Shown here: positions 1,911-40,016 of the stretch, piece after piece
Layout of the letters: each line of letters opens with the position of its first letter
How positions within the stretch are numbered: position 1 is the first letter of the stretch
NCBI GenBank assembly: GCA_013287965.1
Contig: JABDCU010000004.1
Location: 13,503 to 77,502 of the forward strand
Length of the DNA stretch: 64,000 nt
DNA from: Candidatus Omnitrophota bacterium
GTDB taxonomy: Bacteria > Omnitrophota > Gorgyraeia > Zapsychrales > Fredricksoniimonadaceae
Direction: 5' to 3'
The notes under the pieces: generated by a model
Database searches by the model: none
Seen by the model: only the letters and a program-made list of their open reading frames with translations
Told to the model about the DNA's origin: nothing
Position numbers and translations under genes: made by a program

Positions 1911-4900
1911 TTACCCCTCTAAAAACGCCCTCAAATCCGTCATAGGCTGAATGCTAATGATCACCGGCACAAAGCCAGGCGCATTTTGCAGTTGTGCCAG
2001 CTGTGTGGGGTCAAGATGAAACTGAATCTCCCCATTGCCGTCCCCTTTGACCTCCAACGGCGTCCTGCCGGCAGTAAAATCAATACCACCTTGTCTATGT
2101 ACTTTAACAGCCATCGTCCGGCCCATTCCCTCATTTTTCCCCACCGCCATGGCCCGGTCGGCAAAACCGCCAACTTCAATTTCTTTTGTTAGCTTTTCAA
2201 CACGACCAATTTCTTTATTTCTCAATACAATAATATTCCCTGTTGGGAATTCCACAACGATCTCATCATTTACTTTTATAGGCACCTTATTTGACGGGCC
2301 AGAAATTCCCTCAACTTGATAGTGTTGCTTTCCTACTTTCTTTAAAGAGATCAAAACTTCCTCGCCATCAAAAGATGCCCGTACATCCCCCACATTCTCC
2401 CTCTTAAAAAACCCATCGGCCACCAAGGGATCGTCAATCGGCGTCCATTTTTTCATGCCCTCTGAACCTTTAATACGTACCCGAGCAGGCCATGGGAATT
2501 TTCTATATAACCTATTGGAAAAATACCAACTCAACGCCCTCCAAGTTGACCAACCTGAATTCTTAAGCTGTTTCCCTGATATCCGAACGGCCTGTATGAT
2601 ATAAAATAACGCGGCTTCAGCCCCGCCGCTATTTGCAAAACGCTTGATCGTACCTTCATGAGCTGAATATGGCCAAAAATCTCCCATCCGCCAATCACCA
2701 TTTTGACTTTTAACCAGTGTAACAGTTTTTCCCTGGCTAAAATTCTCGAACGATGGACTCCTGATATTTTGCGCTCGAGAATAAAAATAGAGGTTCAGTT
2801 CATATTCATATGGTTCATTACGCGCCCGATATTCCATGGCATAAATAAACCCTTTGCGCGTTTCTCCTGGCTTAAGCTCAACATCATTGCGTAACCGGTA
2901 TTGACCAAACTTGAAAACTTGTGACACTCCTTTTTTTCCCGTGACCAAAAAGCTCTGCCTGGGATCAGCGATAAGAACACCTGGTGTTAAAATAGCTGAC
3001 GCCTTCATCGCCCGGTCCATTCCCTCATTTCTACCCGCCGCCATGCTCCAATCCGAAACAGAATCGCTTAATCTTTCTTGGATACGCTCTTTAATTTCTT
3101 CATACCTCATTTTAGATAATAAATCTTTTAATACTTTCATCCTCTGACGCAAGGAAGATTCTAATGTTAGCATGTCCCCTGCCTGGTATTGCTCTCTCAT
3201 TGAACGGTATATATTTCTGTCTCCAATGTAATATTCAACCTTAAAATAAGATTTGGCAAGATCAGCCAAGGGAGCTTCCGTAATAGTTTTATCATCCAAT
3301 TGTAATAGGGCTTTAAGTTGATTAATTTGTACTTCATCACTGCCATTAAAATTAAGCAGAATATCCAGGAGTATTTTTGCCTGTTCACCAGATCCTGAAA
3401 CAAGCACCAGCTTTAACGCTTCTGATTGAATAACACCATCAATAAAAAAAGGCTCGTCTTTCAATATTTCTACCTGGATCCCTTTTACTTTATTAAACCT
3501 CTTTGCTAACGCTTGTATAAAATCAAGCCATAATTGGCTTTGATACATATTGGTCCCTTCTAAAAGCACATCTATATCTTTCCGGCCGGGACCAAAATAT
3601 CTTCTTCCCCCCACAATGACCGGTCTAACATGGCTTGAGATCGGACGCATAACTTCCTGTAAAACCTCTTCTAACTTTTGTATATTGTCTTCTTTCTTAG
3701 TGAAATCATAATAATCTTCCGCTCTTTCTGTTGCAGGATCATCGCTCTTCATCGCCCGGTCCATTCCCTCATTTTTATCCGTCACCATGGCCAGGTTGAC
3801 AAAGTCGCCAACTTCAATTTTCTTTGTTAGTATTTCTACACGGCCGATCTTTTTGTTCTGAAATACAATATCCCCTGTTGAAAAATCCACAACGATATCA
3901 TCGTCTACTTTTATAGGCATGTTGAACGGACCCAAAATATCCTCGACCTGATACCGTTTCTTTCCCTCCTTCTTCAAAGAGATCAAAACTGCCTCACCAC
4001 CAAGGGACGCCTGTACAACCCCTACATTCTCCTTTTTAAAAAAACCATCAGCCACCAAGGGATCATCAATTGAAATCCAATCATTCATGTCCTCTGAACC
4101 TTCAATACGCACTCGCGCGGGCCATGAAAAATTCCTATATAACCTATTATAAAAATACCAACTTAACACTCTCCAAGCCGTGTGTCCTGAATTTTTAAGC
4201 TGTCTCCCTGAAATGTTCACAGCCTGCTCAATGTAGGACAATATAACTTCGGCCCCGCCGCTTTTCGCAAAACGATTGATCGTTCCATCATCTCTCGAAT
4301 ATGGCCAAAAATTAGTCATTTGCCAGTCATCTCCTGAATCCTTATCAACTTGGACATATTTAAAATTATTAAACGAGAAAGGATCAGTATCTTTCTTTTG
4401 AGAAGAAAGAATAAAACGCAATTCATATCTTTTAGAATAAAGATTCTCAAGGGCATAAATGATCCCTTTACGTGTTTCCCCCGGCTTAGGCGTAACATCC
4501 TCCCGCAATTGGTAAGTACCCAATTCAAAAATCTGCGATTGGCCAATTTTCCCAGAGACCAAAATGCTTTTCCTTGGATCTGCAATAAGAACACCTGGCA
4601 TTAAATCAGCCGACGTTTTCATCGCCTGATCTAATTTAGGCTGGAGCTTTCTTCGGCCATCCCTTGGTTTAATATGACTGGCCCACAAAACAATGGATGT
4701 TCTGGAGCGTGCTACTCCATACTTTCGCGCTACTTTATTTATTGTCTTTTTAAGGGTCTTGTATCTTTTTTTCTTTGCCATGGACAATAATGCCTCCATC
4801 TCTGGCGATATGTCCTGGGAGCCTTTAGTTGAAATACCAAGGGCCTTCAAAACTGAGTGGACTATAGAATTTGAAACATTATATTTCTTTGCTATTTGCC

Positions 4901-7900
4901 GCTCAGTTTTATCAATGGACTTCACATTTTTTTCATGTAACTTTTTTGCCCATTTTAAGAATTTTCTTATTTCCTTTGATGGCTCCGGGCTTTTGCGGCT
5001 GCTTGCTTGAATCTCCAAGACTCGCAAAATAACATTGATTGATGTTTGCGCAACTTCAAATTTGTTTGCTATCTGTTGCGGTGTCATTTTAGTGGTCTTG
5101 CTCTTTTTCTTTTGGGCCCATGTGAGCGCTTTTTTCATATTGGGGGATGTCGTCCAGCCTTTTGTCTTAATGCTGTACACCAAACATACAACGTTGACTA
5201 TTTCCCGGCTTACTTTAAACCTCTTTGCCAACTCCATCCCGGTCATGTTCACAGACCTGCCTTCCCTTTTTTCTGCCCAGGACAAGAACCCTTCCTGCCC
5301 GGTCTTTGCCTTGGGGCTGATCTTATAAATCATGGCCAGGTCTTTGGGAGCAGCCAATTGGGCGCTGTTTTCTGTAAGCTTGACCTTGGAAACCAATTCA
5401 AACAACTGTTCCGCTCCAAGGGAAGGTATAAGTCTGGCCTGCCTGTTCCTTATCATATGAATTTGTTTTTCAACCTTATTGTCATCACCGCGCCGCATTG
5501 GAAAACTGTCTATTTTACACACCGTCCCATCAGCCCTGTCCTTTATTAAATCGCCCTTCCCCCACTTTTCCGGATTTTGATCATCAGCGCCAGCTGGAAC
5601 GAAATACTCCTGGTCCTTGCTTAAATTCTCTACATGAGGCACCGTGTCCCTCTTAATGCCATTCTCTAACATATCTAAGATGCTCTGGGTAAACGGGCCA
5701 TCCGGCCAATTATCACCCCCTTGATCATAAATTTTCCGATAATAGACGAGCGACAATTGTTTTAGTGTTTTATTCGAAGGCACTAATAACTCCGCGTCTA
5801 CGATCCAGGCCCCAAGCTCTCCATTCAAATATCCAACTACGATATTAGAAGAAATTTGTGCGTCGAGCAGTTCCAAATGGTTTTTGACGAGTCTTATAAA
5901 AAGATCCTGTACAAGTTCCAAATATCGTCTATTTACCTGCTGTTGGGATAATAACTCATGTAGAGACTTCGTGCCATCTACCGGCTTGATCCGGGTAACG
6001 GCAATGACCCCATGCCCACTGATTGTTCCTATGGCAAACGGCGGGACAACTCCCTTTTCAAGCCCCAATACAAACCCCTGCTTTTCATTTTCTATTTCTT
6101 TATTATCCCTCTCCTCTTCATTGATCATCCTAAAAACAAAACCGCTCCAAGGGCCTTCATTAAAAATTAAAATCAAAGATTGTCCTTCAGACATGACCAC
6201 TGATTTATTCCCATCCGGATCGACCAATTCATGCGCTTTTTCAGAATATTTAAACCGCTCAAAAGGAATCACCATCGCCCGGTCCGCTGGTTTGATCTCA
6301 AGGGCTAAATTCCTACCCTCCTTATGTTGTATGGCAAGCAATGCATCTTGTACGCCCGCTGCTTGCAACCTTGTCCTGTTAAGAGGCACCCAGCTCGACA
6401 TGCCCGCCAATTTAAAAATAACACCAAATGGTTTACCCATCACCGATGCCAAATGCATCATCCCCCCTTCAACCGTCAACACATAATTTGAATAGCTGAC
6501 GAAATATTTAAACATTTCCGGATTGAGTGATGGCCCAGGGGCGATCGCAATACCTCCCCGATTACTTTTGGAGACTTGATCAACTAATTCTTCCGCTATT
6601 TTCCTTGTTCCCCAGGGCGTATCATTGGGCAAAAGAACAACCTTATAATCATTACTTACTAATTTTTCTATAATACTCACTAACTCTTGCTGATCTTTCT
6701 TGCTGCGGGAAAACCCCTTGCTTTCCATTCCTCCTCCATACGGATTTAATGAAACAACCGGGTATTTATACTTATGCCCGATCAATGGGTTTCCAATCTG
6801 CTCCATCAAATGGCCCCATTGTTCCTTGAACCGGGCGTTAGGGGTCCCGTTGACCAAAAATTCTGTACCTTCTTTTTTCAAGGGCAGTCCCAACTCTGCA
6901 TTTAGCCTTGAATATACCTCATGGATATTAAATTCCCAAGGCACAGAATCATCCAAATTCAATCGGTCAGCATAATCCTGTCCATTGACCCGGATTCTTT
7001 CAAATATTAAACTCCCTACATCTGCATGATGAGCATGGATATTTAAGAAAGCATTCTTACCTATATTGCTTACCCTGAAATTTTCTTCCAAATCATTGTT
7101 AAAGGAAATCGTATTGCCGTAAAAATCAATAACAGCATCGTAATGCTCCCTGGCCCCATCAATCTGCCAATGTGTTCTGGCCAAATCCTGCATTGGAATA
7201 ATCTTGACCCTTGGATGGTTGTATAAATAAGGACGTCCCGTGATCACCGTTACCTCCAAATCCGGGTTGAAGCCCAATAATCCCTGAATTAAAGAAGCTG
7301 TTCGGACCAATTCATCCCCTTGCCCATCTTTAATGTTATGGATAATTAATATATTCTTTCTCCCATACTTTAAGTGGTTTTCTATTAACCCATGCAAGCT
7401 GAACAGCCCTCTGTTCCTGATGATACCCTCAGCTTGCTGTTGGACCAAAGAGGATGCCCGGGGATTGGTCGTGATGTAATATAAAAAATATCTAAAGTTC
7501 CGGTCCTCCTGATATACCTTGCTGATGTCTTCCAGCACAGGGACCGTTAAATCCTCCGGGTGTTTTAATGCAAACGGCTCCAAACCTTTTATTAAAATAT
7601 CCTCTCTTTCTTGATACGTTAATCCTAAACCTAACAATGATAGTACAATCCTATAAAAATTATTCCCTTCATCCTCTGACATGGCACTTATCAACTCTGA
7701 AAATCCAGCTTTATTAAAATAGTCACTCAATATGACAAACGGATCATCCCACATAAAATAGGCCCCTGTTGTGCCCAGAATGTCCTTATTAAATAATCCC
7801 TGTGTCCTCATCAAATCGATCGCCTTTGATATTGCCATGGATTCCGGGGTTTTATCACCCAATAATACTCCCTGTATTTTCCTGAATAAAGGCCGTGCTT

Positions 7901-9533
7901 TAGAAAAATTATGTTGGCTCCAAACTCTTAATACCCGTAACCGTATACCTACGCCATAATCATGGTTGGTGACAATTTGTTCCATATATTCATCGCCCAA
8001 GTAATCCGCATGGTCCAACACAAAACTCACTATCACTCTTGCCCAACGGCTATTATGTTCAGCCGACAATGCGTCTTTCAACAACCTGCCTATTAAATCA
8101 GAAGTCAACGGAAACCTTGTCGCGATCCCATAGATACCTCTAAAATACCAGTCTACGTCTTGCCCCTTGATGATTTTTCTTTCTATCAAATTCAAATAAG
8201 ATCCAATAAGAAAATCATTTGCTTGATGGGGAATGGTCAGCATGACCCCTATGATCAAATTTCTCCCTACCGGTTTCATTATTCTTCTCCAGAGAACGGA
8301 ACCAATATAGGTGTTTTTTATCTCCAAAGGGGACATTGCCCAATCAATGCCGCCTGAAAAATACTTTCTGGGAGTGATTTGCTGCGTTAGCGGGTCTTGG
8401 TCTTCTTTGATGTAGTTGTAGACGCCTTTTTTGAAGGCTTTTAGGTATTGCTGGTAGATAAATTCGACGTTGTCCTGGGAATGGATTCCCGCGAGCAACT
8501 GCGAGTGTCGGTCAATACGACCTTTCGCGGGAATGACAGTAGAAGCATATTGAATGCCGGCGACTTTATTTTTATCCGCATAGACTTGCGCCAGGATGCT
8601 GTCTTTGATCTTCTTTTTATACCAAGTGGCTAAGATCAAGCTGTTGTAAACTTGGCGAAGCTGGGCGAAGTTGCGGCCGCTGTTGACTTCCTTTGTTAAC
8701 TCGGGAATTACTATTTCGCGGACGATTTGGGAACCTAAAGCATTCACGTCATTCTGAGGCGAAGCCGAAGAATCTTTAGATGTCTTAAGATTCTTCGCTT
8801 CGCTCAGAATGACGGGGTTCTTTTGGATGACAATATTTTTTTCAAGCGCAAGGTAATCTTGCTCAAGCATGACTTTTAATTTGGCTTCTACCACATAGGC
8901 TGTGCCAGCTTTGGCATTTTCGTAGACCACGGCTTTTTCAGGGATGATCCAGACCTTATTGAATGTGTTAACAGGGATATTGGTCGTGCCAAATTTCTTG
9001 GCGGCTTCTTGGTAGATGCGTTTCCAGAATTTTTTGCCTGTTTCGCCTTCAGGATAAATTAGGCTCGCGGTGATCTGTTTGAGCATGTAATCCTCTGCTA
9101 AGAGGTCGCGGCCCATTTCGGTGAGGCCAAAGCTATTAGGAATAATGCGGTTTTTTTCGTAAGGTGAGAGATTGACCCAGAGGTCTTTTTCCGGGATGGT
9201 TAAAGAGGCCAAAAAATATTTAATAAGTTTGGTGGCTTCGGTTTGGATTCCCGCTTTCGCGGGAATGACAGTGGAACTACCTTGGTCCAAAATGAAATCA
9301 AAGCGGAATGGATTGTCGGGATGGACTTTTAGGCCTTTGAGGATCGGTGGGTTGAATTCCGGACTTAAAGGAACCATTATCCCGGGTGCAGGCAAACGAA
9401 ACTCCTGCGCTTGAGCCAAGGGCATGGGGCCGCAAGAATTTAATATAAATGATATTAAAATGATAAAAGATTGCCAGGGCCTATAAAACTGGCCTCGCAA
9501 AGACATATAGCTGCGCATAGTGAAAGTATGCAC
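1911..9533 (-). CDS. giant secreted multidomain protein (2540 aa): shared N-domain, GT9 heptosyltransferase-like domain, weak kinase-like region, 4x HTH-like repeats, duplicated 290-aa module flanking an NTase-like module, shared C-terminal domain
   Basis: A single uninterrupted ORF with an N-terminal hydrophobic segment (SFIILISFILNSC). Residues 55-400 align by eye with residues 50-350 of the 43365..47072 protein. Residues 725-1045 (nt 6399..7361) carry GT9-like motifs (NILIIHNIKDGQGDELV; LTVEGGMMHLASVMGKPFGVIF). Residues 1929-2176 contain GGRRYFGPGRKDIDVLL (G-x-n-DxD). The C-terminus reads GGIDF...LQNAPGFVPVIISIQP. Confidence 0.85.
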   Translation of the reverse strand: MHTFTMRSYMSLRGQFYRPWQSFIILISFILNSCGPMPLAQAQEFRLPAPGIMVPLSPEFNPPILKGLKVHPDNPFRFDFILDQGSSTVIPAKAGIQTEATKLIKYFLASLTIPEKDLWVNLSPYEKNRIIPNSFGLTEMGRDLLAEDYMLKQITASLIYPEGETGKKFWKRIYQEAAKKFGTTNIPVNTFNKVWIIPEKAVVYENAKAGTAYVVEAKLKVMLEQDYLALEKNIVIQKNPVILSEAKNLKTSKDSSASPQNDVNALGSQIVREIVIPELTKEVNSGRNFAQLRQVYNSLILATWYKKKIKDSILAQVYADKNKVAGIQYASTVIPAKGRIDRHSQLLAGIHSQDNVEFIYQQYLKAFKKGVYNYIKEDQDPLTQQITPRKYFSGGIDWAMSPLEIKNTYIGSVLWRRIMKPVGRNLIIGVMLTIPHQANDFLIGSYLNLIERKIIKGQDVDWYFRGIYGIATRFPLTSDLIGRLLKDALSAEHNSRWARVIVSFVLDHADYLGDEYMEQIVTNHDYGVGIRLRVLRVWSQHNFSKARPLFRKIQGVLLGDKTPESMAISKAIDLMRTQGLFNKDILGTTGAYFMWDDPFVILSDYFNKAGFSELISAMSEDEGNNFYRIVLSLLGLGLTYQEREDILIKGLEPFALKHPEDLTVPVLEDISKVYQEDRNFRYFLYYITTNPRASSLVQQQAEGIIRNRGLFSLHGLIENHLKYGRKNILIIHNIKDGQGDELVRTASLIQGLLGFNPDLEVTVITGRPYLYNHPRVKIIPMQDLARTHWQIDGAREHYDAVIDFYGNTISFNNDLEENFRVSNIGKNAFLNIHAHHADVGSLIFERIRVNGQDYADRLNLDDSVPWEFNIHEVYSRLNAELGLPLKKEGTEFLVNGTPNARFKEQWGHLMEQIGNPLIGHKYKYPVVSLNPYGGGMESKGFSRSKKDQQELVSIIEKLVSNDYKVVLLPNDTPWGTRKIAEELVDQVSKSNRGGIAIAPGPSLNPEMFKYFVSYSNYVLTVEGGMMHLASVMGKPFGVIFKLAGMSSWVPLNRTRLQAAGVQDALLAIQHKEGRNLALEIKPADRAMVIPFERFKYSEKAHELVDPDGNKSVVMSEGQSLILIFNEGPWSGFVFRMINEEERDNKEIENEKQGFVLGLEKGVVPPFAIGTISGHGVIAVTRIKPVDGTKSLHELLSQQQVNRRYLELVQDLFIRLVKNHLELLDAQISSNIVVGYLNGELGAWIVDAELLVPSNKTLKQLSLVYYRKIYDQGGDNWPDGPFTQSILDMLENGIKRDTVPHVENLSKDQEYFVPAGADDQNPEKWGKGDLIKDRADGTVCKIDSFPMRRGDDNKVEKQIHMIRNRQARLIPSLGAEQLFELVSKVKLTENSAQLAAPKDLAMIYKISPKAKTGQEGFLSWAEKREGRSVNMTGMELAKRFKVSREIVNVVCLVYSIKTKGWTTSPNMKKALTWAQKKKSKTTKMTPQQIANKFEVAQTSINVILRVLEIQASSRKSPEPSKEIRKFLKWAKKLHEKNVKSIDKTERQIAKKYNVSNSIVHSVLKALGISTKGSQDISPEMEALLSMAKKKRYKTLKKTINKVARKYGVARSRTSIVLWASHIKPRDGRRKLQPKLDQAMKTSADLMPGVLIADPRKSILVSGKIGQSQIFELGTYQLREDVTPKPGETRKGIIYALENLYSKRYELRFILSSQKKDTDPFSFNNFKYVQVDKDSGDDWQMTNFWPYSRDDGTINRFAKSGGAEVILSYIEQAVNISGRQLKNSGHTAWRVLSWYFYNRLYRNFSWPARVRIEGSEDMNDWISIDDPLVADGFFKKENVGVVQASLGGEAVLISLKKEGKKRYQVEDILGPFNMPIKVDDDIVVDFSTGDIVFQNKKIGRVEILTKKIEVGDFVNLAMVTDKNEGMDRAMKSDDPATERAEDYYDFTKKEDNIQKLEEVLQEVMRPISSHVRPVIVGGRRYFGPGRKDIDVLLEGTNMYQSQLWLDFIQALAKRFNKVKGIQVEILKDEPFFIDGVIQSEALKLVLVSGSGEQAKILLDILLNFNGSDEVQINQLKALLQLDDKTITEAPLADLAKSYFKVEYYIGDRNIYRSMREQYQAGDMLTLESSLRQRMKVLKDLLSKMRYEEIKERIQERLSDSVSDWSMAAGRNEGMDRAMKASAILTPGVLIADPRQSFLVTGKKGVSQVFKFGQYRLRNDVELKPGETRKGFIYAMEYRARNEPYEYELNLYFYSRAQNIRSPSFENFSQGKTVTLVKSQNGDWRMGDFWPYSAHEGTIKRFANSGGAEAALFYIIQAVRISGKQLKNSGWSTWRALSWYFSNRLYRKFPWPARVRIKGSEGMKKWTPIDDPLVADGFFKRENVGDVRASFDGEEVLISLKKVGKQHYQVEGISGPSNKVPIKVNDEIVVEFPTGNIIVLRNKEIGRVEKLTKEIEVGGFADRAMAVGKNEGMGRTMAVKVHRQGGIDFTAGRTPLEVKGDGNGEIQFHLDPTQLAQLQNAPGFVPVIISIQPMTDLRAFLEG
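2106..3005 (-). repeat. internal protein module copy B (aa 2177-2476) of the giant gene
   Basis: Aligns over its full length with aa 1639-1928. Examples: PGVLIADPR, KPGETRKG, NSGGAE, QLKNSG, PWPARVRI.GSE, IDDPLVADGFFK.ENVG, EVLISLKK, IGRVE.LTK.IEVG. Confidence 0.85.
3750..4619 (-). repeat. internal protein module copy A (aa 1639-1928) of the giant gene
   Basis: Paralogous to 2106..3005. Both copies end in a NEGM(D/G)R(A/T)M linker. The linker DNA at 3003..3030 is 28/28 identical to 3747..3774. Confidence 0.85.
4668..5291 (-). repeat. four tandem ~50-aa HTH-like repeats inside the giant protein (aa 1415-1622)
   Basis: Repeat pattern is L.WA.K......MT..qIAkKf.VS.s.V..vL...I. The four cores are MELAKRFKVSREIVNVV, QQIANKFEVAQTSINVIL, RQIAKKYNVSNSIVHSVL and NKVARKYGVARSRTSIVL. 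Confidence 0.7.
8483..8538. repeat. 56-nt long form of the GGATTCCCGC...GCGGGAATGACA palindromic element, in-frame inside the giant gene
   Basis: The first 27 nt and last 13 nt are identical to the copy at 48778..48833. It encodes VIPAKGRIDRHSQLLAGIH. The paralog at 43365..47072 lacks about 21 residues at exactly this point. Confidence 0.85.
8749..8813. repeat. second palindromic element family (GTCATTCTGAG.CGAAGC.GAAGAATCTT / inverted copy), in-frame inside the giant gene
   Basis: The arms are 8749..8777 and 8787..8813. They are reverse complements apart from two extra bases in the left arm. Encodes VILSEAKNLKTSKDSSASPQNDV in a segment that does not align with the paralog. Confidence 0.75.
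9245..9270. repeat. 26-nt REP-like hairpin GGATTCCCGCTTTCGCGGGAATGACA, in-frame inside the giant gene
   Basis: 8-bp stem ATTCCCGC/GCGGGAAT with a 4-nt loop. Encodes VIPAKAGIQ (aa 89-97). Confidence 0.85.
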
Positions 9534-12180: not shown

Positions 12181-13054
12181 GAAGCTCTCCTTTTGGACTG
12201 ACCGTGTCAAGGCTGACACATGGCAGTTTTATCGTAAAAACGGTGCCCTCCTGATCACTTTGCACAGTGATACTTCCCCCGTGCTCATTGATCAAATCGT
12301 GGCACAACGCCAGCCCTATGCCTGAGCCTTGCACCTTTGTCGAAAAAAACGGGTCAAAGATCTTGGCCTGATGTTCGTGGGCGATTCCGGGCCCGTTGTC
12401 CTTAAAAATAATGAGGGCCTGGTTGTTCTCAATATCATATTTTGACGTCACCAGCAAGGTGCGCAAAACCCCATGAGGCATCTCACTTAAGGCCTCCATG
12501 GCATTGACGACCAAGTTCATAAACACCTGCTGCAGATGCAAAGCGTCCCCGAAAATAAGCGGTATACGATCATCTAATTGGATGTCCCATCCGATGCGGC
12601 GTATACGCAGCTCATCTAAAAGCAAATTAAAGGACTTATGAATGACCGTATTGACGCTTGTTTGGGTTTTTTGGATCTTGCGATGGCGGATCAATTCCAT
12701 CAAGTTGGCAAGCATGTCCTTGATGTAAAAAGACTGCTCATCCATCACACAGACAGGTTTATAAAAAGGAGAGTTGATGTCCATTTCCTTTTTCATAAAA
12801 CGCACAAAACCGTGGATGGCCGTGATCGGCTGGCTGATCTGGTGCAAAAGCCCGGCGCTCAAAGCCGCGACCGCCCCTTTTTTTCCGCTATCCATCAATT
12901 TGACCTGGGCCGCTTTCAGTTCCATGATCGTGGACTCCAGCTGCGCGTTCTTTTCTTTAAGAGCATGGTTAAGCCGGATATATTGGATAAAAAACCAGGC
13001 CAGGAAAGCCACCAGCACCAGATCAACGGCAATAAAAATGGCGTGCATCATCAA
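12167..13054 (-). CDS. sensor histidine kinase (one N-terminal TM, coiled coil, HisKA-like region, HATPase_c)
   Basis: N-terminal TM segment IFIAVDLVLVAFLAWFFI. ATPase boxes VNAMEA (N), KDNGPGI (G1) and GSGIGLALC (G2). 4-nt overlap with the upstream gene. Confidence 0.8.
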   Translation of the reverse strand: MMMHAIFIAVDLVLVAFLAWFFIQYIRLNHALKEKNAQLESTIMELKAAQVKLMDSGKKGAVAALSAGLLHQISQPITAIHGFVRFMKKEMDINSPFYKPVCVMDEQSFYIKDMLANLMELIRHRKIQKTQTSVNTVIHKSFNLLLDELRIRRIGWDIQLDDRIPLIFGDALHLQQVFMNLVVNAMEALSEMPHGVLRTLLVTSKYDIENNQALIIFKDNGPGIAHEHQAKIFDPFFSTKVQGSGIGLALCHDLINEHGGSITVQSDQEGTVFTIKLPCVSLDTVSPKGELHEAT

Positions 13055-14037
13055 ATCCCTTTTAAATCAAGCTTATCTCCCACCTTCCAGTGGTGAGAGG
13101 TAGCGTAACCGCTGTTAATTTCCAAAACATACCGGGCTTTCCGGCCAGGACCATAAACCGGGCAAGGGTCGCTGGTGCAAGCAGGGATGTTCTGCCCTAT
13201 AAAAACAATGCGGCCATCGACGGTAATCCACAATATATCCAAATTAAAATGCATGTTCTTCATCCAAAACTTATAAATGTCATCCCTGGCAAACTCAAAA
13301 AGCATGCCCTTGTCCTGGCCCAAACCGGTACGGTACATCAACCCGCGCTCCAGATCATCCTGTTTAAAGACCACCTCCACCGTCACGCAGTTGTTCAAAT
13401 GGCAAACCTGCGGGGATGCGGCCTGTACCGGGCCAATACCTAAGATTAAAAATATGAAAAAAAGAATGCTCACCCCAAATTTTTTTAGCATCTCGGCCAG
13501 CTTGGCCAAAGGCAGTCCCACCACGTTAAAATAGCATCCCTCGATGCGCGGGATAAAAAGCGCGCCCTTACCCTCGATATCAAAACCGCCTGCCTTATCC
13601 AGCGGAGAAACTTGCTTGTGATAACGTCCGATCGCCCCGTCTGTCAGCTTGGACATAAACACCCTGGTTTTTTCAAACCCTACCTCTTTTCGCCCGGTCT
13701 TGGCATCAATGACAGCCACGCCGGAGTAAACCCAATGCGGCTTGGCCATCAATTCCTTAAGATTTTTTTTAGCTTCCTGCAAATCCCGGGGTTTCAAGAT
13801 CAAACGGCCTTTGGATGAAAGTACCACCGTATCTGATCCGATGACTATCCCCTCCTGCAGGCGATCTGCCACTTCTTGGGCCTTTCTCAAAGCATTGATC
13901 CGGACAAGATGCGCGCAGCCGCGGGTCAAACGGGTGATCTCCTTGGCCCGGCTGGGGGAAACGCTAAAAGGCAGCCCCAATATTTTCATCAGTTTCCGAC
14001 GCTGGGGACTAGCCGAGGCCAGGATGATCTTTTTCAT
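13051..14037 (-). CDS. maf: Maf nucleotide pyrophosphatase fused in-frame to a signal/TM segment and a DUF192 domain
   Basis: Residues 1-182 are Maf-like (ILASASPQRRKLM, IGSDTVV, GFDIEG). Residues 183-208 (MLKKFGVSILFFIFLILGIGPVQAAS) look like a signal peptide. The rest is DUF192-like (ERGLMYR...GMLFEF...FWMKNM.F.LDILW). Confidence 0.75.
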   Translation of the reverse strand: MKKIILASASPQRRKLMKILGLPFSVSPSRAKEITRLTRGCAHLVRINALRKAQEVADRLQEGIVIGSDTVVLSSKGRLILKPRDLQEAKKNLKELMAKPHWVYSGVAVIDAKTGRKEVGFEKTRVFMSKLTDGAIGRYHKQVSPLDKAGGFDIEGKGALFIPRIEGCYFNVVGLPLAKLAEMLKKFGVSILFFIFLILGIGPVQAASPQVCHLNNCVTVEVVFKQDDLERGLMYRTGLGQDKGMLFEFARDDIYKFWMKNMHFNLDILWITVDGRIVFIGQNIPACTSDPCPVYGPGRKARYVLEINSGYATSHHWKVGDKLDLKGI

Positions 14038-14591
14038 TTAAGGAATTCGGCTAAAGTAAAAATAGATTCCAAGGGTACCTTGTACTTGGCCAAGGCCTCA
14101 AAAGCGCCTTCACCCCGGTCAATGACACAGATGGCTTTTTTGATCTTGATATTCATCTTCTGCAGCACTTCGATCGATTCCACAAAAGCCTTGCCGGTGG
14201 TGGCCACATCATCAATGATCACGACACTGCCGCCCTCTTCAAGCCGCGGGCCTTCCACCTGCTGCTGCTTGCCATGGGCTTTAGGTGTTTTACGGATGAT
14301 AAAGGTGTTGATGGGACGGCCTGCCTGATGGCTTAAAGAGGCGATGGCACCCACCATAGGATCAGCGCCCAAGGTGGGCCCACCGATGGCATCCGGCCGG
14401 TCTTGGGCGATCATATCCAGCATGATGCGTGCGGTCAGGAACGCTCCCGCGGCAGACAAGGTCACCAGCCGGGCATCCAGGTAAAAATCACTCTCTTTGC
14501 CCGACGATAAAATAAACTTTCCCTTTGAAAAAGCCTGGGCCTTAAGAAGGCGGAATAATTCACTTTTATCGGCGGTAATGGGTGTATGCAT
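14034..14591 (-). CDS. pyrE: orotate phosphoribosyltransferase
   Basis: Motif FILSSGKESDFYLD and the PRPP-binding loop VVIIDDVATTGK. Confidence 0.9.
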   Translation of the reverse strand: MHTPITADKSELFRLLKAQAFSKGKFILSSGKESDFYLDARLVTLSAAGAFLTARIMLDMIAQDRPDAIGGPTLGADPMVGAIASLSHQAGRPINTFIIRKTPKAHGKQQQVEGPRLEEGGSVVIIDDVATTGKAFVESIEVLQKMNIKIKKAICVIDRGEGAFEALAKYKVPLESIFTLAEFLK

Positions 14592-14888
14592 TTAAAATTG
14601 GGGGATCTCTAAGTTGCGCGCATGGATCTCGATCAACAGCAAAAGGCGGAATTTTAACAGGGCTTTATAATCTTTGTATTCTTTGGGGCTAAAACCGGAT
14701 GTAGCGTGGAAGGAACGGTTGGCCTCGATCTCGACCAAAGCATTCTCATAGGTATCAATGAGCTGGTCATCAGTGAGCTTGACGATGGCTGGTTTTTCTA
14801 AAATGGCCACGTCCGATGGAAATTCAGCCATGGACAGAGGGGTTAAAAACAAGACCACCATCATCGCTAAAGCTAGTTTTTTATACAT
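14592..14888 (-). CDS. small secreted hypothetical protein
   Basis: 98-aa ORF with an N-terminal signal-like segment (LALAMMVVLFLTPLSMA). It abuts pyrE. Confidence 0.5.
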   Translation of the reverse strand: MYKKLALAMMVVLFLTPLSMAEFPSDVAILEKPAIVKLTDDQLIDTYENALVEIEANRSFHATSGFSPKEYKDYKALLKFRLLLLIEIHARNLEIPQF

Positions 14889-14902
14889 AAAATCCTTTAA
14901 AT

Positions 14903-14928
14903 GGATTCCCGCTTGCGCGGGAATGACA
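14903..14928. repeat. 26-nt REP-like hairpin (intergenic copy)
   Basis: Sequence GGATTCCCGCTTGCGCGGGAATGACA. Confidence 0.85.
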
Positions 14929-14977
14929 ATATAGATTAGACACCTAAAATCTCTCCCGGGTAAGTTAATTATATGGT

Positions 14978-15060
14978 TTATGTGGCGCAGCCAGTTATGT
15001 GGCCTTGCGCCTCAAACCATGATATCTCCTAATATGGAATCAAAAGTTAACACCACATAA
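14978..15060. repeat. left terminal motif array: TTATGTGG (14978), TTATGTGG (14995), CCACATAA (15053)
   Basis: Read directly from the sequence. The contexts TTATGTGGCG and ACACCACATAA recur in inverted orientation at 40345..40425. Confidence 0.7.
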
Positions 15061-15074
15061 ACAACAGCAGTCTA

Positions 15075-16082
15075 TCACAGTGTTCTTAGAAATTGTACCA
15101 GATTTACATTGTCATGCCAACGTTTTACTGGCTTAGATTCAATATCACAAAAAGCCAGCGCCCTTGCTTTCATTTCAAGGTCAGTTTCAGCATAAATATT
15201 GGTCGTATTGATAGAAACATGCCCCAGCCAAGCTCGTATAGTATTAATATCAACTCCAGATCGTAAGAGATGTGTGGCAGTTGTATGCCGAATTGTATGA
15301 GGGCTAACTCGTTTAAGCTTCAGAGAGGGGACTCTCTCTGAGGCTTTTAGAGCATAACGTTCAACCAAGGTATAAATGCCAAAACGCGTAATAGGCTGTT
15401 TACAACGATTAAGAAAAACATGTTCTTTAACATCCCGCCCTTCTATAAGCAACCGTATTTCCTTTACAGTTTGAGACCATAACGGACAACTGCGAAGCTT
15501 ATTCCCCTTTCCACGAATAACTACTGATGAATAATTACGGCCTGGCACATGAGCCAAATTAAGGTCAGCAATGGTAACTTGAGCCGCTTCGTCGGCACGA
15601 ACTCCGGTGTTGTAAAGAAAAAGAAGAAGCGCATGGTCACGCTGTTTTTGAGGTGAAGTACATTCGGCAGCTCCAAGTAAAGCATCCATTTCCATTTTCT
15701 CAAGATAAGGAATTAATGCATGAGGAGCTCTCTTGAAAGGGATGGCCATGATCTGTCCAGACCACTGAATATGCTCAGGACTATAAAGTCCAATAAACTG
15801 AGCCAGTGAATGAATAGCTCCCAAACGTTGATTACGGGTTGTGATGCTTGAATGACGTGTCTTTTCAAGATCAAGAAGAAAAAGTAATACGTGCTCCCTC
15901 GAAACATCTTCGATCAAAAGTTGATCAATATTTTTTCGTGTCTGAGAGGCAATGAAAGGCAGAAGTAAACACAAAGTATCGCGGTAACTGCGCTGTGTAT
16001 TATATGAAAGATTTTTGACACTGATCAAATATTCCATTAAAAAACGTCTAATCCAAGGGCCAATCAAGCTATGGTTAATCAT
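15075..16082 (-). CDS. ritC: tyrosine recombinase, third gene of the recombinase trio
   Basis: Catalytic signature GVRADE...HTIRHTTATHLL...LGHVSINTTNIYA (R..HxxR..H..Y). The symbol is assigned by position in the trio. Confidence 0.8.
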   Translation of the reverse strand: MINHSLIGPWIRRFLMEYLISVKNLSYNTQRSYRDTLCLLLPFIASQTRKNIDQLLIEDVSREHVLLFLLDLEKTRHSSITTRNQRLGAIHSLAQFIGLYSPEHIQWSGQIMAIPFKRAPHALIPYLEKMEMDALLGAAECTSPQKQRDHALLLFLYNTGVRADEAAQVTIADLNLAHVPGRNYSSVVIRGKGNKLRSCPLWSQTVKEIRLLIEGRDVKEHVFLNRCKQPITRFGIYTLVERYALKASERVPSLKLKRVSPHTIRHTTATHLLRSGVDINTIRAWLGHVSINTTNIYAETDLEMKARALAFCDIESKPVKRWHDNVNLVQFLRTL

Positions 16083-16083
16083 T

Positions 16084-17022
16084 TCAAGCCTCCTTTAAAG
16101 TATATTGTTCAAAACGATGTCCTGCTTCTTCAAGTAATGCGGGTGTCATAGTAAGATAAACAGAAGTAGCAGCCAATGTGACATGTCCCAAGTAAACAGA
16201 CAACATCAGTACAAGATTTTGTACATCTGCCCCTTCTTTATATAAAGCAGTTAGACGATGAACTGCAAAAGTGTGGCGTAGATCATGAATGCGTGGCTGT
16301 TGATCACTATCAAGACGCCTAATATTCACTTTTTCACGGATACGTCTAAAATTTTCCCCGACAGCAGGTTGCTTAACGGCTTTTCTGTTTCTCCCTATAA
16401 AGAACGAAGATTGAGGATCTTGGGAATATTTTTTCTGCTTACGCCAAGAAACGTACTCTTGTAAAACCTGAGTCAATTGTTCACCAATAGGAACAAAACG
16501 TGACTTATAAAATTTCGTTTTCCGAATTGTGAGCAATGATTGATTCAAATCAACATCAGCCAATTTTAAAGAAATAGCTTCCCCAATTCGTAAACCACTT
16601 CCATATAAAAGTAATAAAATTGTACGCATCGTATAAGGTGAAATCCTACTATTAATTTTGTGATGAGTAAAACAGCCATTAATTAAAGCCTTAACTTCTT
16701 CAGTACTGTAAATATATGGTAAAAATCGTGGGGGCTGTTTCGGTATTACCAGTGGCAAAAGTGAAGTATCCGCATATCCTCGGCTGATTACATACTTATA
16801 AAAACCACGTAATGCGCTATGTCTAACATGCCAACTTCTAGTAACGGCAAAAGTCCCTCCTGTAAGAAAACTAATTACGGAATCAGGTTTCACTTCGGAA
16901 AGTTCAATCCCTGGCTCCAAGGTCCGAACAAAAGCTTTTAGTCTCCAGGAACCACTTTCAAAGGATTCACCAAGTGATTTTCGATAATTTATATATTGAT
17001 CAACTAACGTTAAAAGCTTCAT
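16084..17022 (-). CDS. ritB: tyrosine recombinase, second gene of the trio
   Basis: Catalytic signature GLRIGEA...IHDLRHTFAVH...LGHVTLAATSVYL. It starts 4 nt inside the upstream gene. Confidence 0.8.
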   Translation of the reverse strand: MKLLTLVDQYINYRKSLGESFESGSWRLKAFVRTLEPGIELSEVKPDSVISFLTGGTFAVTRSWHVRHSALRGFYKYVISRGYADTSLLPLVIPKQPPRFLPYIYSTEEVKALINGCFTHHKINSRISPYTMRTILLLLYGSGLRIGEAISLKLADVDLNQSLLTIRKTKFYKSRFVPIGEQLTQVLQEYVSWRKQKKYSQDPQSSFFIGRNRKAVKQPAVGENFRRIREKVNIRRLDSDQQPRIHDLRHTFAVHRLTALYKEGADVQNLVLMLSVYLGHVTLAATSVYLTMTPALLEEAGHRFEQYTLKEA

Positions 17023-18266
17023 AGCACACCCCCTAAATTAAAATTGGCGACTTCCCGAAGTTTCGTAAGATTTACCTTCGTATAAACACGCGTTGTTTCC
17101 AAGTCACGGTGTCCCAGCTGGTCTGCAATAGTCTTAAGTGGAACTCCTTGATTAATTAAACGACTAGCACAAGCATGACGCAAAGAATGCGTGCCATGTT
17201 TCTTAATATCAACACCTAGTCGCCTCCAACGGGCATAAATTAGCGAAGCCAATCCTTTTAAAGGACGAAAAGGTGCGCGGAAAGTCAGAAAAATCTCACC
17301 ATACGAAACGCATTGGGGACGAGTTTTTGTAATATATTCCAACAATGCATCTGCTACGGTTTGACTAAGTGGAAATTGTTGTGCAGGCCCACGCTTCGAG
17401 TGTTTAAGACAAAAAGTTCTTTGTTTCCAATCAATATCCTCCAATCGTAATTGTCGAACTTCACTGGCACGAAAACCGTATACTGCCAAGAATAAAATGA
17501 TGGCTCGGTCACGAATGTCCAAAGGACGTTCCCCTTCTGTTGTTTTGACAAGACGTTGAATTTCTTCTAAAGAGAGTCCAGTGGGAAGCGCATCATGTCT
17601 ATATACACGCGGAGAGTTAATAGAATCTACTATTCCACAAGGACACCAGTTCCGATGCTCAGCATAACGAAGAAAACTTCGTAAAATTGACATTTGATTC
17701 TTTATAGTGCGACGAGCATATAGTCCTCGACTGAGTTCTTTAATCAAAATTGTATCAATATGCGCGGGGATGAGGTTAGCAAGGAAATGCTCAAGATCTT
17801 CTTTGGTTTTGCTAAAGAACTGTACCAATATAAAGCGACGAGTATAAATCGTTGCCTCAGATAGCCCCTTCTCTTTTCGCATGTAATTAACATACTCTTT
17901 CAACTGCCAGGGGATTCTTTGTTTTGGATCTTCAAGCCGATCCAAAAATTTCAACCAAATCTTAATATCACTAATAAAACGGTAGCCACGAGAAGAACAA
18001 GAAAAGTCTTTACGACCAAACTTTAACATTTCATCACGTAGCCAACGCCTGGTTGCGTCTTTAATTTCTTTAATCGTTATAATTCGATCATTATCAATAT
18101 TAAGATATTTAGTCGCGATATATTGATAACGAGCAATTTCACGGAGTGCTAACCACCCACTCCCTCGTTCGGCACGATAAGTAAGATACCGTAAGCGATC
18201 CTCTAACAGAGAAGCGTTACGTAGACGCTTTATGGTTCCAGGTTTCTCAAAAAGTTTCTCAAACAT
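17019..18266 (-). CDS. ritA: tyrosine recombinase, first and longest gene of the trio
   Basis: 415 aa with GFRASEV...THSLRHACASRL...LGHRDLETTRVYT. The extended N-terminal domain fits the first member of a RIT trio. Confidence 0.8.
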   Translation of the reverse strand: MFEKLFEKPGTIKRLRNASLLEDRLRYLTYRAERGSGWLALREIARYQYIATKYLNIDNDRIITIKEIKDATRRWLRDEMLKFGRKDFSCSSRGYRFISDIKIWLKFLDRLEDPKQRIPWQLKEYVNYMRKEKGLSEATIYTRRFILVQFFSKTKEDLEHFLANLIPAHIDTILIKELSRGLYARRTIKNQMSILRSFLRYAEHRNWCPCGIVDSINSPRVYRHDALPTGLSLEEIQRLVKTTEGERPLDIRDRAIILFLAVYGFRASEVRQLRLEDIDWKQRTFCLKHSKRGPAQQFPLSQTVADALLEYITKTRPQCVSYGEIFLTFRAPFRPLKGLASLIYARWRRLGVDIKKHGTHSLRHACASRLINQGVPLKTIADQLGHRDLETTRVYTKVNLTKLREVANFNLGGVL

Positions 18267-18358
18267 AGCAGATCCTCCTTTTAGGGTTAGAATTGCTATT
18301 TTACTTTATGAAAGAAATAATAGGAAGTTAGGCTTATATACAACAGGCAGTAGAAATT

Positions 18359-18973
18359 TTATCGTTCCAATCTAAATCTCACTGGCACTCTTACCTCAGA
18401 CTCAACAGCCATGTTACCAATGCGGCCAGGCTGAAATTTCCAATGCCAGACAGCTTTTAAAGCCGCTTGATCAAGCAAACGAAATCCCGAACCATGTATA
18501 ATTTCTACATTGACCGGATTGCCTTCTTTATTCACATCAACCGACAACATGACAATACCTTCTTGGCGCATCTGCTTGGCAAGTTCAGGATATTGCGGCG
18601 GCGGGTTCTGGATATAATCCGGCTTGGCCTCTACTTTTACCTGGGCACTGGATGTCAGTATAGGCTTTAGCCTAATCAATACTTTAGGCGTTATAAGTTG
18701 TTTTGGTTTTTCTATAACCTTAACTGTTGGCTTTAGTATTTTAGGAACGATCTTCTCAACTTTTTTGACAACAGGCTTCGTTTCTTCTTGAACTTTAACC
18801 ACTTCTTTGGGTTCATCAATCAAACTAATGTCAATTTCACGACTTGGAGCAATGGCAAGTTGAGCTTGTCTGATGAACATTTTCCCCGTAAGAGAAAAAA
18901 ATAAGACATGGATTAAGACTGCTGCTGTCCAAGCTATAACGATATCCTGTTTGTTATTGTCTATAGAAACCAT
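18359..18973 (-). CDS. tonB: energy transducer TonB
   Basis: N-terminal TM segment, a Lys/Pro/Val-rich spacer, and a C-terminal TonB domain (PPPQYPELAKQMRQEGIVMLSVDV...GNP). Confidence 0.85.
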   Translation of the reverse strand: MVSIDNNKQDIVIAWTAAVLIHVLFFSLTGKMFIRQAQLAIAPSREIDISLIDEPKEVVKVQEETKPVVKKVEKIVPKILKPTVKVIEKPKQLITPKVLIRLKPILTSSAQVKVEAKPDYIQNPPPQYPELAKQMRQEGIVMLSVDVNKEGNPVNVEIIHGSGFRLLDQAALKAVWHWKFQPGRIGNMAVESEVRVPVRFRLER

Positions 18974-35826: not shown

Positions 35827-36481
35827 AACCAAAGCCCCTGACCGTATGAAGTAATTTTGGATTAAATGAACGATCAATTTTATCTCTTAAGCGACAGATG
35901 CGCGCTTCAATAATATTGGTTTGCGGATCAAAATTATAGTCCCAGACGTGCTCCATGATCATGGTCTTTGAAACGACCCTGCCGGCGTTACGCATAAGGT
36001 ATTCAAGAAGGACAAATTCACCCGACTGTAGGATTATTTCTTTTGTCCCCCGGAAAACTTTACGGCCTAACATATCTATCTTGAGATCAGCTATTTCTAA
36101 TGTGGTAGTCTCTGGATTATGGCTGGTCCTGCGAATAATTGCCTGGACCCTGGCTAAAAGTTCTGTGAACGCGAAGGGTTTAACCAGGTAATCGTCCCCT
36201 CCTGCCTGTAACCCTTTGACCCTGTCATCAACGGTATTCTTGGCGCTTAATACTATGACAGGGGTTAGAATTTTCTTTTGACGCAATCGGTTGATCAAAC
36301 TTAAACCATCAAGTTTAGGCATCATAATATCTACAATGGCCAGATCGTAGTCTTCTTCTTTAGCAAAATGCAGACCATCTTCACCATTATCAGCACGATT
36401 TACGGTGTATCCAGCTTGCTTTAAGCCTTTAACGATAAACGATGCTATCTGGTCATCATCTTCAACTAATAGTATTTTCAT
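35804..36481 (-). CDS. OmpR-family response regulator
   Basis: Receiver domain (MKILLVEDDD, DLAIVDIMMPKLDG, KPF) plus a winged-helix domain (LLEYLMRNAGRVVSK...VRGFGYV). The start is placed at 36481. The ORF track extends to 36559. Confidence 0.85.
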   Translation of the reverse strand: MKILLVEDDDQIASFIVKGLKQAGYTVNRADNGEDGLHFAKEEDYDLAIVDIMMPKLDGLSLINRLRQKKILTPVIVLSAKNTVDDRVKGLQAGGDDYLVKPFAFTELLARVQAIIRRTSHNPETTTLEIADLKIDMLGRKVFRGTKEIILQSGEFVLLEYLMRNAGRVVSKTMIMEHVWDYNFDPQTNIIEARICRLRDKIDRSFNPKLLHTVRGFGYVIEEKE

Positions 36482-36654
36482 ACTCTCCGTGACCTTGTAC
36501 TCCTTTAGGTCGTAAATAGTCCAGTAAGATTCTTTACTCGCGAAGTTTACCACTCTCAATCTGAAAAAGCAAATTCAATAATATTCAGAGATTCAGAGGT
36601 TCAAATGCAGGAGCTGCTATTGCGGTTTATAGGAAGGTTGTAAATTACTAAATA

Positions 36655-36687
36655 ATAACTGCCCGTATTTTGATTACGGGCAGTTAT
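36655..36687 (-). terminator. 13-bp perfect-stem hairpin ending the Ubl/E1 operon
   Basis: ATAACTGCCCGTA-ttttgat-TACGGGCAGTTAT lies 24 nt after the last stop codon. The tail on the minus strand is only moderately T-rich. Confidence 0.5.
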
Positions 36688-36710
36688 ATTAAAATTGATT
36701 CCTTATGATT

Positions 36711-36917
36711 CTATGAATTCTTTCGCAGATCACTGAGGGAATCTTTTCCGGTCTTCTTTAATACATTCTCAAGCTTTGCATCGCTACGGACGCCAGACAG
36801 AAAATCTGGCCCATAAGTATGCCTAAGAGTTCCAACTAAGGTGTTGCCATTCTTCCGACGGATTTCTCCGTCTTCATCACGGCTACGGCCATCAAGGCCC
36901 CTTGAATGTTTATTCAT
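36711..36917 (-). CDS. small basic hypothetical protein, last gene of the Ubl/E1 operon
   Basis: 68-aa ORF rich in R/K/D/G. No motif recognised. It is co-directional with the operon and lies upstream of the hairpin. Confidence 0.45.
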   Translation of the reverse strand: MNKHSRGLDGRSRDEDGEIRRKNGNTLVGTLRHTYGPDFLSGVRSDAKLENVLKKTGKDSLSDLRKNS

Positions 36918-36978
36918 TTCTTTATACCTCCTTCCTTTTAGACTTATAGCATTGATTTAAAAGCATAGACTCTGTTTT

Positions 36979-37335
36979 TTATTTTTCACTTTTGCTTTTA
37001 TTTTTGTAATATTCCTTTTTAATCAATTCATCACACTTTCTAGCCCGCTCAATTTGACTTTTAGTCCAATTAGGTGCCCTCTGTACCCTGCTGTTTGTAA
37101 TAAAATAATGTGATTGGCACTTAAAACTCCAATTCCCAATCGAAGGATATAAAGACACAGTCTCCCCGTCATAAATCAACTTCCAATCAGTCGGGGAGAG
37201 CGGCGTCACAACTTCTTCCCCACAGCCACAACAGCATTTATGAATTACTGTTGAATATTCGATGGAAATATACAAAACGCCATCTTCCAATTTGTCCGGG
37301 GCATGCTTTATAAATTTGTGCGTCAATTTAATCAT
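36979..37335 (-). CDS. Cys-rich small protein resembling DUF6527 (putative Zn-binding partner of prokaryotic E1/Ubl systems)
   Basis: 118 aa with a HKCCCGCGEE cluster and a distal KCQSHYFI (C/H ligand pattern). 8-nt overlap with the E1 gene. Confidence 0.65.
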   Translation of the reverse strand: MIKLTHKFIKHAPDKLEDGVLYISIEYSTVIHKCCCGCGEEVVTPLSPTDWKLIYDGETVSLYPSIGNWSFKCQSHYFITNSRVQRAPNWTKSQIERARKCDELIKKEYYKNKSKSEK

Positions 37336-38747: not shown

Positions 38748-38765
38748 ACTTACCTCCTGGGTTAT

Positions 38766-38784
38766 TTTACGCAACTTGCGTAAA
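38766..38784. promoter_or_regulatory. perfect 9-1-9 palindrome TTTACGCAA-c-TTGCGTAAA just upstream of the Ubl RBS
   Basis: Read directly from the sequence. A 1-nt centre rules out an RNA hairpin loop, which favours a dimeric HTH operator. GCGTAA/GCGTAT half-sites recur at 39902..39916, upstream of the XRE gene. Confidence 0.45.
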
Positions 38785-38801
38785 TTGTGATTAAAAAAAT
38801 A

Positions 38802-39892: not shown

Positions 39893-40016
39893 ACTTTATA
39901 AGCGTATAGCGTAATCCTCTACTTGTCAAATTAATTTTACCTATTTAATTTACAATGCCCCCTTCCAAATCATTCGTCGATGAATTCAAGTTAGAAAATA
40001 ATACTCCTGCCGAGAT

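Follow-up and report, generated by a model that had tools for sequence, protein, structure and literature searches.

Among tyrosine-recombinase elements, those of the recombinase-in-trio (RIT) family rank with the most widespread. The RITs described so far span about 3.5 kb, with 28-51-bp repeats directly beside the ritA-ritB-ritC trio and no cargo (PMC3414803, PMC10214605, PMC5737581), and their movement, target specificity and recombination sites are listed as untested (PMC10214605, Table 1). Here we describe a RIT locus in a stretch of 64,000 nucleotides of a Candidatus Omnitrophota chromosome (contig JABDCU010000004.1, positions 13,503 to 77,502), which we call the window and whose own coordinates are used throughout. 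Positions 14978-40451 (25,474 bp) are likely to form a single RIT-family mobile element. The locus shares with the RITs of Cupriavidus metallidurans CH34 and C. necator pHG1 the order ritA-ritB-ritC with an ATGA overlap, a catalytic Tyr in all three proteins and terminal inverted repeats, and its relatives often lie inside transposase genes, as RITs do in Tn6049-like elements (PMC3414803). Unlike the described RITs, it has its ritA-side end 22 kb away from the trio, measures 25.5 kb in total and resides in Candidatus Omnitrophota.

Two other groups of elements invite comparison. GInts, like the locus, are islands of tens of kb that insert site-specifically, have three recombinase-like genes at one end and lack conjugation genes; they need ginD, however, and their GinC is without the catalytic motif, whereas the window has no fourth gene and three intact catalytic sites. 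Strand-biased circularizing elements (SEs) and Tn554 have a comparable 6-7-bp junction sequence, and the differing spacer described below recalls their 6-bp footprint (PMC10214605). SEs encode IntA, Tfp, IntB and Srap, and Tn554 encodes TnpA, TnpB and TnpC; the gene order and composition of the window are not homologous to these, and the gene sizes and order of SEs are unlike those of the window trio (PMC10214605).

The recombinase trio

The three recombinase genes are arranged as follows:

17019-18266, minus strand: ritA, 415 aa, tyrosine recombinase with an additional N-terminal helical domain
16084-17022, minus strand: ritB, 312 aa, tyrosine recombinase
15075-16082, minus strand: ritC, 335 aa, tyrosine recombinase

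The ritA and ritB genes overlap by 4 nt (ATGA, 17019-17022), and 1 nt (16083) separates ritB from ritC. All three products match Pfam Phage_integrase, with E-values of 1e-26 to 1e-32, and retain their catalytic residues (RitA, R266/H360xxR363/H386/Y395; RitB, R145/H246xxR249/H280/Y289; RitC, R162/H262xxR265/H288/Y297), and their pairwise identity is just 24-26%. An initial annotation of this DNA had described three co-directional, mutually divergent tyrosine recombinase genes with intact signatures, and the coordinates, Pfam matches, catalytic residues and level of identity all bear this out.

As a reference we used the trio PHG134/135/136 of plasmid pHG1, which is named as a rit trio in the CH34 genome paper; the region was fetched and compared by blastp. 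The top pHG1 match of window RitA was RitA (PHG134; E 4e-40), that of RitB was RitB (PHG135; E 3e-46), and that of RitC was RitC (PHG136; E 3e-54), while cross-family matches were all 2e-13 or weaker. Identity to the pHG1 proteins is 31-33%. Judged by these matches, each window protein is orthologous to the published pHG1 Rit protein of the same letter, and the trio is a genuine RIT.

Structure models add two features. RitA is modeled with a Xer-like fold comprising a helical domain (residues 1-107), a core-binding domain (120-204) and a catalytic domain (233-407); two core-binding domains in series are a RitA feature according to Smyshlyaev 2021. Comparison of the RitA N-terminal domain with the protein's own Pfam SAM-like core-binding domain by hhalign revealed no sequence similarity. 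RitC has 38 residues after Tyr297, with helices at 299-311 and 326-334; the latter is an additional C-terminal helix modeled at low confidence (pLDDT about 40-59), and residues L332 and L335 are invariant across 27 homologues. The extra domain of RitA and the extra helix of RitC, as modeled, would fit the RitA and RitC features of Smyshlyaev et al.

Anatomy of RIT ends in relatives

A search with RitC as single protein gave at least 8,000 candidates; with one genome per species scanned, at least 589 RitC relatives were confirmed, and 80 loci were kept. These spread over many phyla, and about 70 of the 80 have the genes in A-B-C order with equally tight spacing (tblastn). Their hosts include Cupriavidus and Paraburkholderia, in which RITs were first described, along with Planctomycetota, Acidobacteriota, Legionella and others. 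The RIT identity that the initial annotation had assigned to the trio is thus upheld by gene order, spacing, same-letter pHG1 matches and the recurrence of A-B-C in about 70 loci.

Ends were found by aligning, at each locus, the sequence upstream of ritA to the reverse complement of that downstream of ritC, and the ends were then compared side by side. In sixty-odd loci they are inverted repeats of ~85 bp each with three TTATGTGG-type subrepeats. The outer pair in each end consists of direct, TTATGTGGCG-like subrepeats 17 bp apart, and the inner subrepeat lies about 50 bp further inward in the opposite orientation. In compact relatives the ritA-side repeat stops 43-68 bp before ritA and the ritC-side repeat begins 6-22 bp after ritC; the distance from outermost to outermost subrepeat is 3373-3477 bp in about 30 of these, and many have two near-identical ends. 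An extra palindrome (subrepeat, 4 nt, inverted subrepeat) lies just beyond one end only, which may be on either side: a strict automated test detected it on a single side in 20 loci and on both sides in 0, and more cases were seen by eye.

Two pairs of identical copies, each pair within the same genome (L043/L045, 3436 identical bp; L077/L079, 3454 identical bp), define the mobile unit. In both pairs one copy has its body reversed with respect to the same flanks and palindrome, which suggests that the elements flip in place between their inverted ends and that the same target is used repeatedly; the flanks of L077/L079 are 87-91% identical and the RITs themselves 100% identical. At four further loci in four genera (L053, L064, L066 and L078), the RIT breaks a transposase-like gene at the same codon (directly after ...PYSPYQ), with GTATCAG at both junctions. 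This codon looks like a conserved insertion hotspot, and the four loci fit the reported occurrence of RITs inside Tn6049-like transposase genes (PMC3414803).

A 6-7-bp junction repeat recurs among the relatives, from which we derived a model of the integrated state that reads, in order: flank, X, element (end, body, end), spacer, palindrome, X and flank, where X is a 6-7-bp sequence common to element and target. On this model a circular form would have the junction inverted subrepeat, X, subrepeat, the arrangement typical of tyrosine-recombinase core sites.

Ends and junctions of the element in the window

The motif TTATGTGG occurs 9 times in the window, compared with 2.4 expected, and six of the nine copies fall within two patches, 14978-15060 and 40345-40439. 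A scan of the whole 64 kb for the three-subrepeat signature returned exactly two ends, 14979-15059 and 40346-40424, which face each other; about 40 relatives show this three-subrepeat layout as well. Generic repeat finding over 14500-18900 gave no convincing repeat flanking the trio, and the ends came to light only through the motif count and the relatives. The two ends and their surroundings contain the following features:

14971-14977, no strand: left junction repeat ATATGGT, directly outside the outermost subrepeat; single copy in empty sites
14978-15062, plus strand: ritC-proximal terminal inverted repeat (IR-D), identified by the TTATGTGG cluster, the signature scan and a layout as in relatives
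14978-14987, 14995-15004 and 15050-15060: IR-D subrepeats TTATGTGGCG, TTATGTGGCC and inverted ACACCACATAA, respectively
18334-18341, plus strand: putative vestigial inner subrepeat TTATATAC, in place of TTATGTGG, 67 nt upstream of ritA
40345-40425, minus strand: distal terminal inverted repeat (IR-U), identified by the TTATGTGG cluster and the signature scan, facing the left end
40345-40355, 40400-40408 and 40417-40425: IR-U subrepeats, inner TTATGTGGTGT, GCAACATAA and outermost GCCACATAA, respectively
40426-40431, no strand: 6-nt spacer TACGTC between outermost subrepeat and palindrome, forming an internal S'-N6-S core-like site
40432-40451, no strand: terminal palindrome TTATGTGG-tcaa-CAACATAA, at the IR-U end only, with an equivalent in relatives
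40452-40458, no strand: right junction repeat ATATGGT; the right-flank alignment of empty-site contigs begins at 40452

Along the strand of the trio, the layout reads palindrome, IR-U, ~22-kb cargo, decayed subrepeat, ritA-ritB-ritC and IR-D, with 25,446 bp between the outermost subrepeats. With its inner subrepeat 14 nt after the ritC stop, IR-D is a canonical ritC-side repeat. Spacing agrees between IR-U and IR-D (17 bp within the outer pair and 56-58 bp to the inner subrepeat), and IR-U together with the palindrome makes up a complete ritA-side repeat in the right orientation, 22 kb from ritA. At the place where such a repeat would be expected (about 18313-18413) a complete copy is absent, and TTATATAC remains. 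Aligned with the compact relatives L088, L091 and L006-L008, this octamer coincides with their CCACATAA subrepeat, and its 67-nt gap to ritA falls within the 43-68 bp of the relatives; on this alignment it looks like a decayed inner subrepeat. The initial annotation had supposed that the element later captured cargo and that an island ended on the right near 40.3 kb, and the second terminus at 40345-40451 confirms this. It had also suggested aligning the flanks of multiple copies to define the true termini; the relatives gave the ~85-bp inverted repeats, and the window ends are 14978 and 40451.

ATATGGT stands at both junction positions predicted by the model, the chance of such a match at one fixed position being 6e-5. 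It differs from the internal spacer TACGTC, and the junction repeats of L009 and L039 are likewise unlike their internal spacers; the repeat is therefore not merely part of the palindrome.

Empty sites and a second host

The predicted empty site reads ...AGTTAATT-ATATGGT-AACATACGG..., and we searched a metagenome collection for its 24-mer. It is present in four metagenome contigs. In all four the right-flank alignment begins at exactly 40452, with 80-87% identity and one ATATGGT copy, and two of them (L083 and L086) also align to the left flank of the window, joined directly to 40452. These sites lack all of 14978-40451, not only 15057-18351, which makes 14978-40451 a single insertion when set against related genomes. 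The 98-aa protein encoded in the flank had no match in an exact look-up.

The right part of the element also occurs in a second host. Two independent assemblies, L103 and L099, contain window positions 36607-40451 at 99.6-100% identity, palindrome and junction included. Their flanks are considerably more diverged (comF-like gene, 76-85% identical; LptF/G, 86%; Alr, 82.5%), and identity drops within about 50 bp of the element boundary. Populations of the empty-site contigs are 79-92% identical to the L103 host. The gene lists of contig ZeBRvdcH lengthen the match to the second-host island to about 8.7 kb. The drop in identity fits site-specific integration into the same target of a diverged host, to judge from the sequences compared; vertical descent, or exchange via long flanking homology, does not fit a drop at the element boundary. 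The sole clustered difference between L103 and the window in the shared 3.8 kb is at 40426-40429, where the window has TACG and L103 has GCAG.

The locus gives natural evidence for RIT mobility and for the positions at which RITs recombine: its ends are exact, a 7-bp repeat marks the junctions, empty sites match, and a diverged host has a near-identical copy. If RITs are conservative site-specific integrative elements, a possibility raised below, the locus with its empty and occupied relatives would be the first before-and-after evidence from nature for RIT movement, target duplication and RIT-borne islands, with regard to the literature apart from Ricker et al. 2013. It also indicates that a RIT can serve as the integration module of a 25-kb island, and it offers annotators a rule for finding RIT-bounded islands, which the compact-RIT definition misses.

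Separately, the end of the L103 contig (11665-11927) corresponds to window 36199-36461, 263 bp of a response-regulator gene joined in inverted orientation with a 7-nt microhomology, GCAGGAG. Either a real inversion in the strain or an assembly chimera would account for this join.

Proposed mechanism

We propose that the three tyrosine recombinases bind TTATGTGG-type subrepeats and that the core site comprises two inverted subrepeats about a 6-7-bp overlap, CAACATAA-ATATGGT-TTATGTGG. Integration would then proceed by conservative site-specific recombination between the core site of a circular form, whose predicted junction is ...TTATGTGGTCAACAACATAA-ATATGGT-TTATGTGGCGCAGCC..., and a target with the same 7-bp overlap. 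The remaining subrepeats of each ~85-bp end would be accessory binding sites, and recombination between the inverted ends could also flip the element body in place, as in the relatives. The cargo would have come in between the ritA-side terminal repeat and ritA, and the element would since have moved as a unit via the distal repeat. The TACG/GCAG spacer difference at 40426-40429 may be a footprint of the crossover region from an earlier site; if so, it would record an earlier recombination. These recombinase roles, the core-site assignment and the footprint are what we infer from the ends and junctions, and they make the site model concrete as to which subrepeats are used, which overlap is used and what role each recombinase has.

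This scheme resembles lambda- and Xer-type recombination in its predicted core, with inverted 7-8-bp arms and a 6-7-bp overlap that is the same in element and target, in the extra repeated predicted binding sites in the arms, and in the Xer-like protein fold. It differs in having three recombinases, not one or two, in that no Xis-like gene was identified, and in its symmetric inverted-repeat ends, which would also permit inversion in place. Beyond this locus, we tentatively raise the possibility that RITs in general are conservative site-specific integrative elements with an inverted TTATGTGG-type crossover and a 6-7-bp overlap, able to bring cargo of more than 20 kb from one host to another.

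Additional DNA within RIT boundaries is found in relatives as well. A compact RIT has about 3.5 kb and repeats that abut the trio; here about 22 kb separate the ritA-side repeat from ritA, and the relatives in our sample that are larger than 3.4 kb measure 3626, 4209, 4723 and 7134 bp, followed by the window element at 25,446 bp. In L094, the ritA-side repeat and ritA are 3.8 kb apart. In L091 (5764-7745) and L092 (1555-3536), a relative with a 76% identical RitC, the outer pair of the ritA-side repeat is separated from its inner subrepeat by a 1.95-kb arsenic-resistance cassette (DUF134, ACR3-type SBF transporter and ArsC-like LMWPc). On the other side of the trio, L027 and L014 have about 0.8 kb and about 0.9 kb, respectively, between ritC and the downstream three-subrepeat end, and L044 has a TTATGTGG cluster about 1.35 kb past ritC. 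L096, the closest RitA relative (80% identical), likewise has no adjacent repeat.

Several observations weigh against a single mobile element. Second-host DNA covers only the right 3.8 kb, with gene lists beyond that and the left junction outside the coverage. The two ends are just 53/98 identical outside the subrepeats, and the linker between their outer subrepeats differs (cagccag vs ttgttga); the two ends may therefore have separate RIT copies as their source, or the element may be old and inactive. The target flanks have no clear likeness to the subrepeats, no circular junction was observed, and movement of a RIT in the laboratory has yet to be reported (PMC10214605). Finally, the GC content of the element (0.417) is only modestly below that of the flanks (0.447 and 0.482) and is uneven along the cargo.

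Alternative explanations

The alternative that fares best is stepwise growth in place, whereby a compact RIT inserted first, the 22 kb were added later by unrelated events, and the 25.5 kb never moved as a whole. Such a history would accommodate the decayed inner subrepeat beside ritA, given that a complete inner subrepeat is present at the distal end as well, a combination which suggests duplication or replacement of the ritA-side end. It would also accommodate the uneven GC of the cargo and the fact that L096 has a different gene upstream of ritA. The 9-mer GTTAGAATT at both cargo edges points the same way, though 2% of shuffles equal it. What makes this history unlikely is that the right 3.8 kb is 99.6-100% identical in a host with 76-86% identical flanks, with the drop right at the boundary, and therefore suggests that the form with cargo was recently transferred into this same site; moreover, the 7-bp repeat brackets the entire 25.5 kb.

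The initial annotation had instead bounded a compact RIT of ~3.3 kb (15057-18351) by an imperfect direct repeat, ATAAACAACAG-CAGT at 15057-15071 and ATATACAACAGGCAGT at 18336-18351. The repeat is present, matching at 15/16 with one indel, and the decayed subrepeat at 18334-18341 overlaps one of its copies. It is marginal, however: its local alignment score of 20 was reached by 55/2000 flank shuffles in direct orientation and 89/2000 in either orientation (2.8-4.5%). It lies 3 nt from the ritC stop codon (15075-15077) and not 4 nt as had been stated, and its main block, ACAACAG(G)CAGT, is found beside ritC or ritA in no relative examined, contrary to the expectation that it would be conserved at other copies. 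Nor does a direct repeat correspond to the ends of the family, which are inverted repeats of TTATGTGG-type subrepeats, and the empty-site contigs, which are without all of 14978-40451, contradict the shorter module, the true bounds being 14978 and 40451. We therefore regard a compact element here as very improbable. The echoes of the right end that had been noted near ritA fared unevenly, as GTTAGAATT does occur at 18288 and 40338 and TTATATAC (18334-18341) aligns with the inner subrepeat of relatives, but the shared 9-mer is marginal, being equalled in 101/5000 shuffles. We also considered the direct repeat and GTTAGAATT as scars of the cargo junctions; both are marginal in shuffles and possibly due to chance.

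Membership in another three-recombinase family, namely GInt (ginABCD), SE (intA-tfp-intB-srap) or gamma-mobile-trio, is equally remote. A ~25-kb island with recombinases at one end and a short junction repeat is GInt/SE-like (PMC10214605, PMC5385486), and the trio has weak NCBIfam GmtY matches, but the matches to NCBIfam Xer, integron-integrase and GmtY models are all below threshold (XerC/XerD, 117-149 bits vs cut-offs of about 330-335; GmtY, 35 bits vs a cut-off of 340), scores on which a Xer or gamma-mobile-trio identity fails. No fourth small gene (ginD, srap) follows the trio, the next open reading frame (ORF) being a host gene that also stands beside the empty site; the catalytic Tyr is kept in 3/3 proteins, whereas GinC and Tfp are without the RHRY motif (PMC10214605); and the top matches are the pHG1 RIT proteins. 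We also considered the distal repeat as a solo remnant of another RIT; that it faces the left end speaks against this, as do the 7-bp repeat and the empty sites, though the two ends may be of hybrid origin.

Cargo and host flanks

The cargo of the proposed 25.5-kb element was annotated with Pfam and PADLOC. Its genes, in order from ritA, are as follows:

18342-40344, minus strand, nearly all co-directional with the trio: cargo, about 22 kb
First group: TonB, ExbD, ExbB, TonB-dependent receptor, Fur
Second group: DegP-like protease, SDR, GST, nitroreductase, DoxX, luciferase-like monooxygenase, TetR, LeuA-like
Third group: second DoxX, NHL-repeat protein, cytochrome c, YceI, metallophosphoesterase, TPR
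Fourth group: histidine kinase and response regulator
Fifth group: BubE/E1/multiubiquitin operon with HTH and M78-peptidase regulators; 86-aa ORF
36979-39892, minus strand: the operon of the fifth group, comprising HTH, M78 peptidase, multiubiquitin (PF14452), DUF6791-ThiF E1-like and DUF6527/BubE

The island brings together genes for iron uptake, redox functions, two-component systems and ubiquitin-like conjugation, in a candidate phylum with little-known mobile elements. The M78 peptidase of the 36979-39892 operon is CapP-like (PADLOC E 4e-15), and the operon as a whole, placed at the far end of the cargo from ritA, represents a ubiquitin-like conjugation system of bacterial type with regulators of the CapH/CapP kind. 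Among the cargo ORFs scanned there was no other integrase and no transposase.

The element adjoins a small 98-aa gene on one side and a comF-like phosphoribosyltransferase gene on the other, and the genes outside it include the housekeeping genes LptF/G, Alr, MetG, CysS, RadA and MtnA. Among named relatives, RadA has its best matches in Candidatus Omnitrophica MAGs, at 86% identity. A GC-rich hairpin, ggattCCCGCttgcGCGGGaatgac, lies at 14903-14927 in the intergenic target region; a near-identical copy is present in empty-site contig L083, and Logan contig L001 ends near it. This hairpin may be a REP-like or regulatory element.

Very large ORFs lie on either side of the element, at 1911-9533 (2540 aa) and 43365-47072 (1235 aa). 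The 1235-aa product has no Pfam match on record. Part of its L103 counterpart matches window 8854-9407 at 78%, and the two giant proteins therefore share a repeated module. Positions 13051-14037 hold a single 328-aa ORF in which a Maf-like domain is fused to DUF192.

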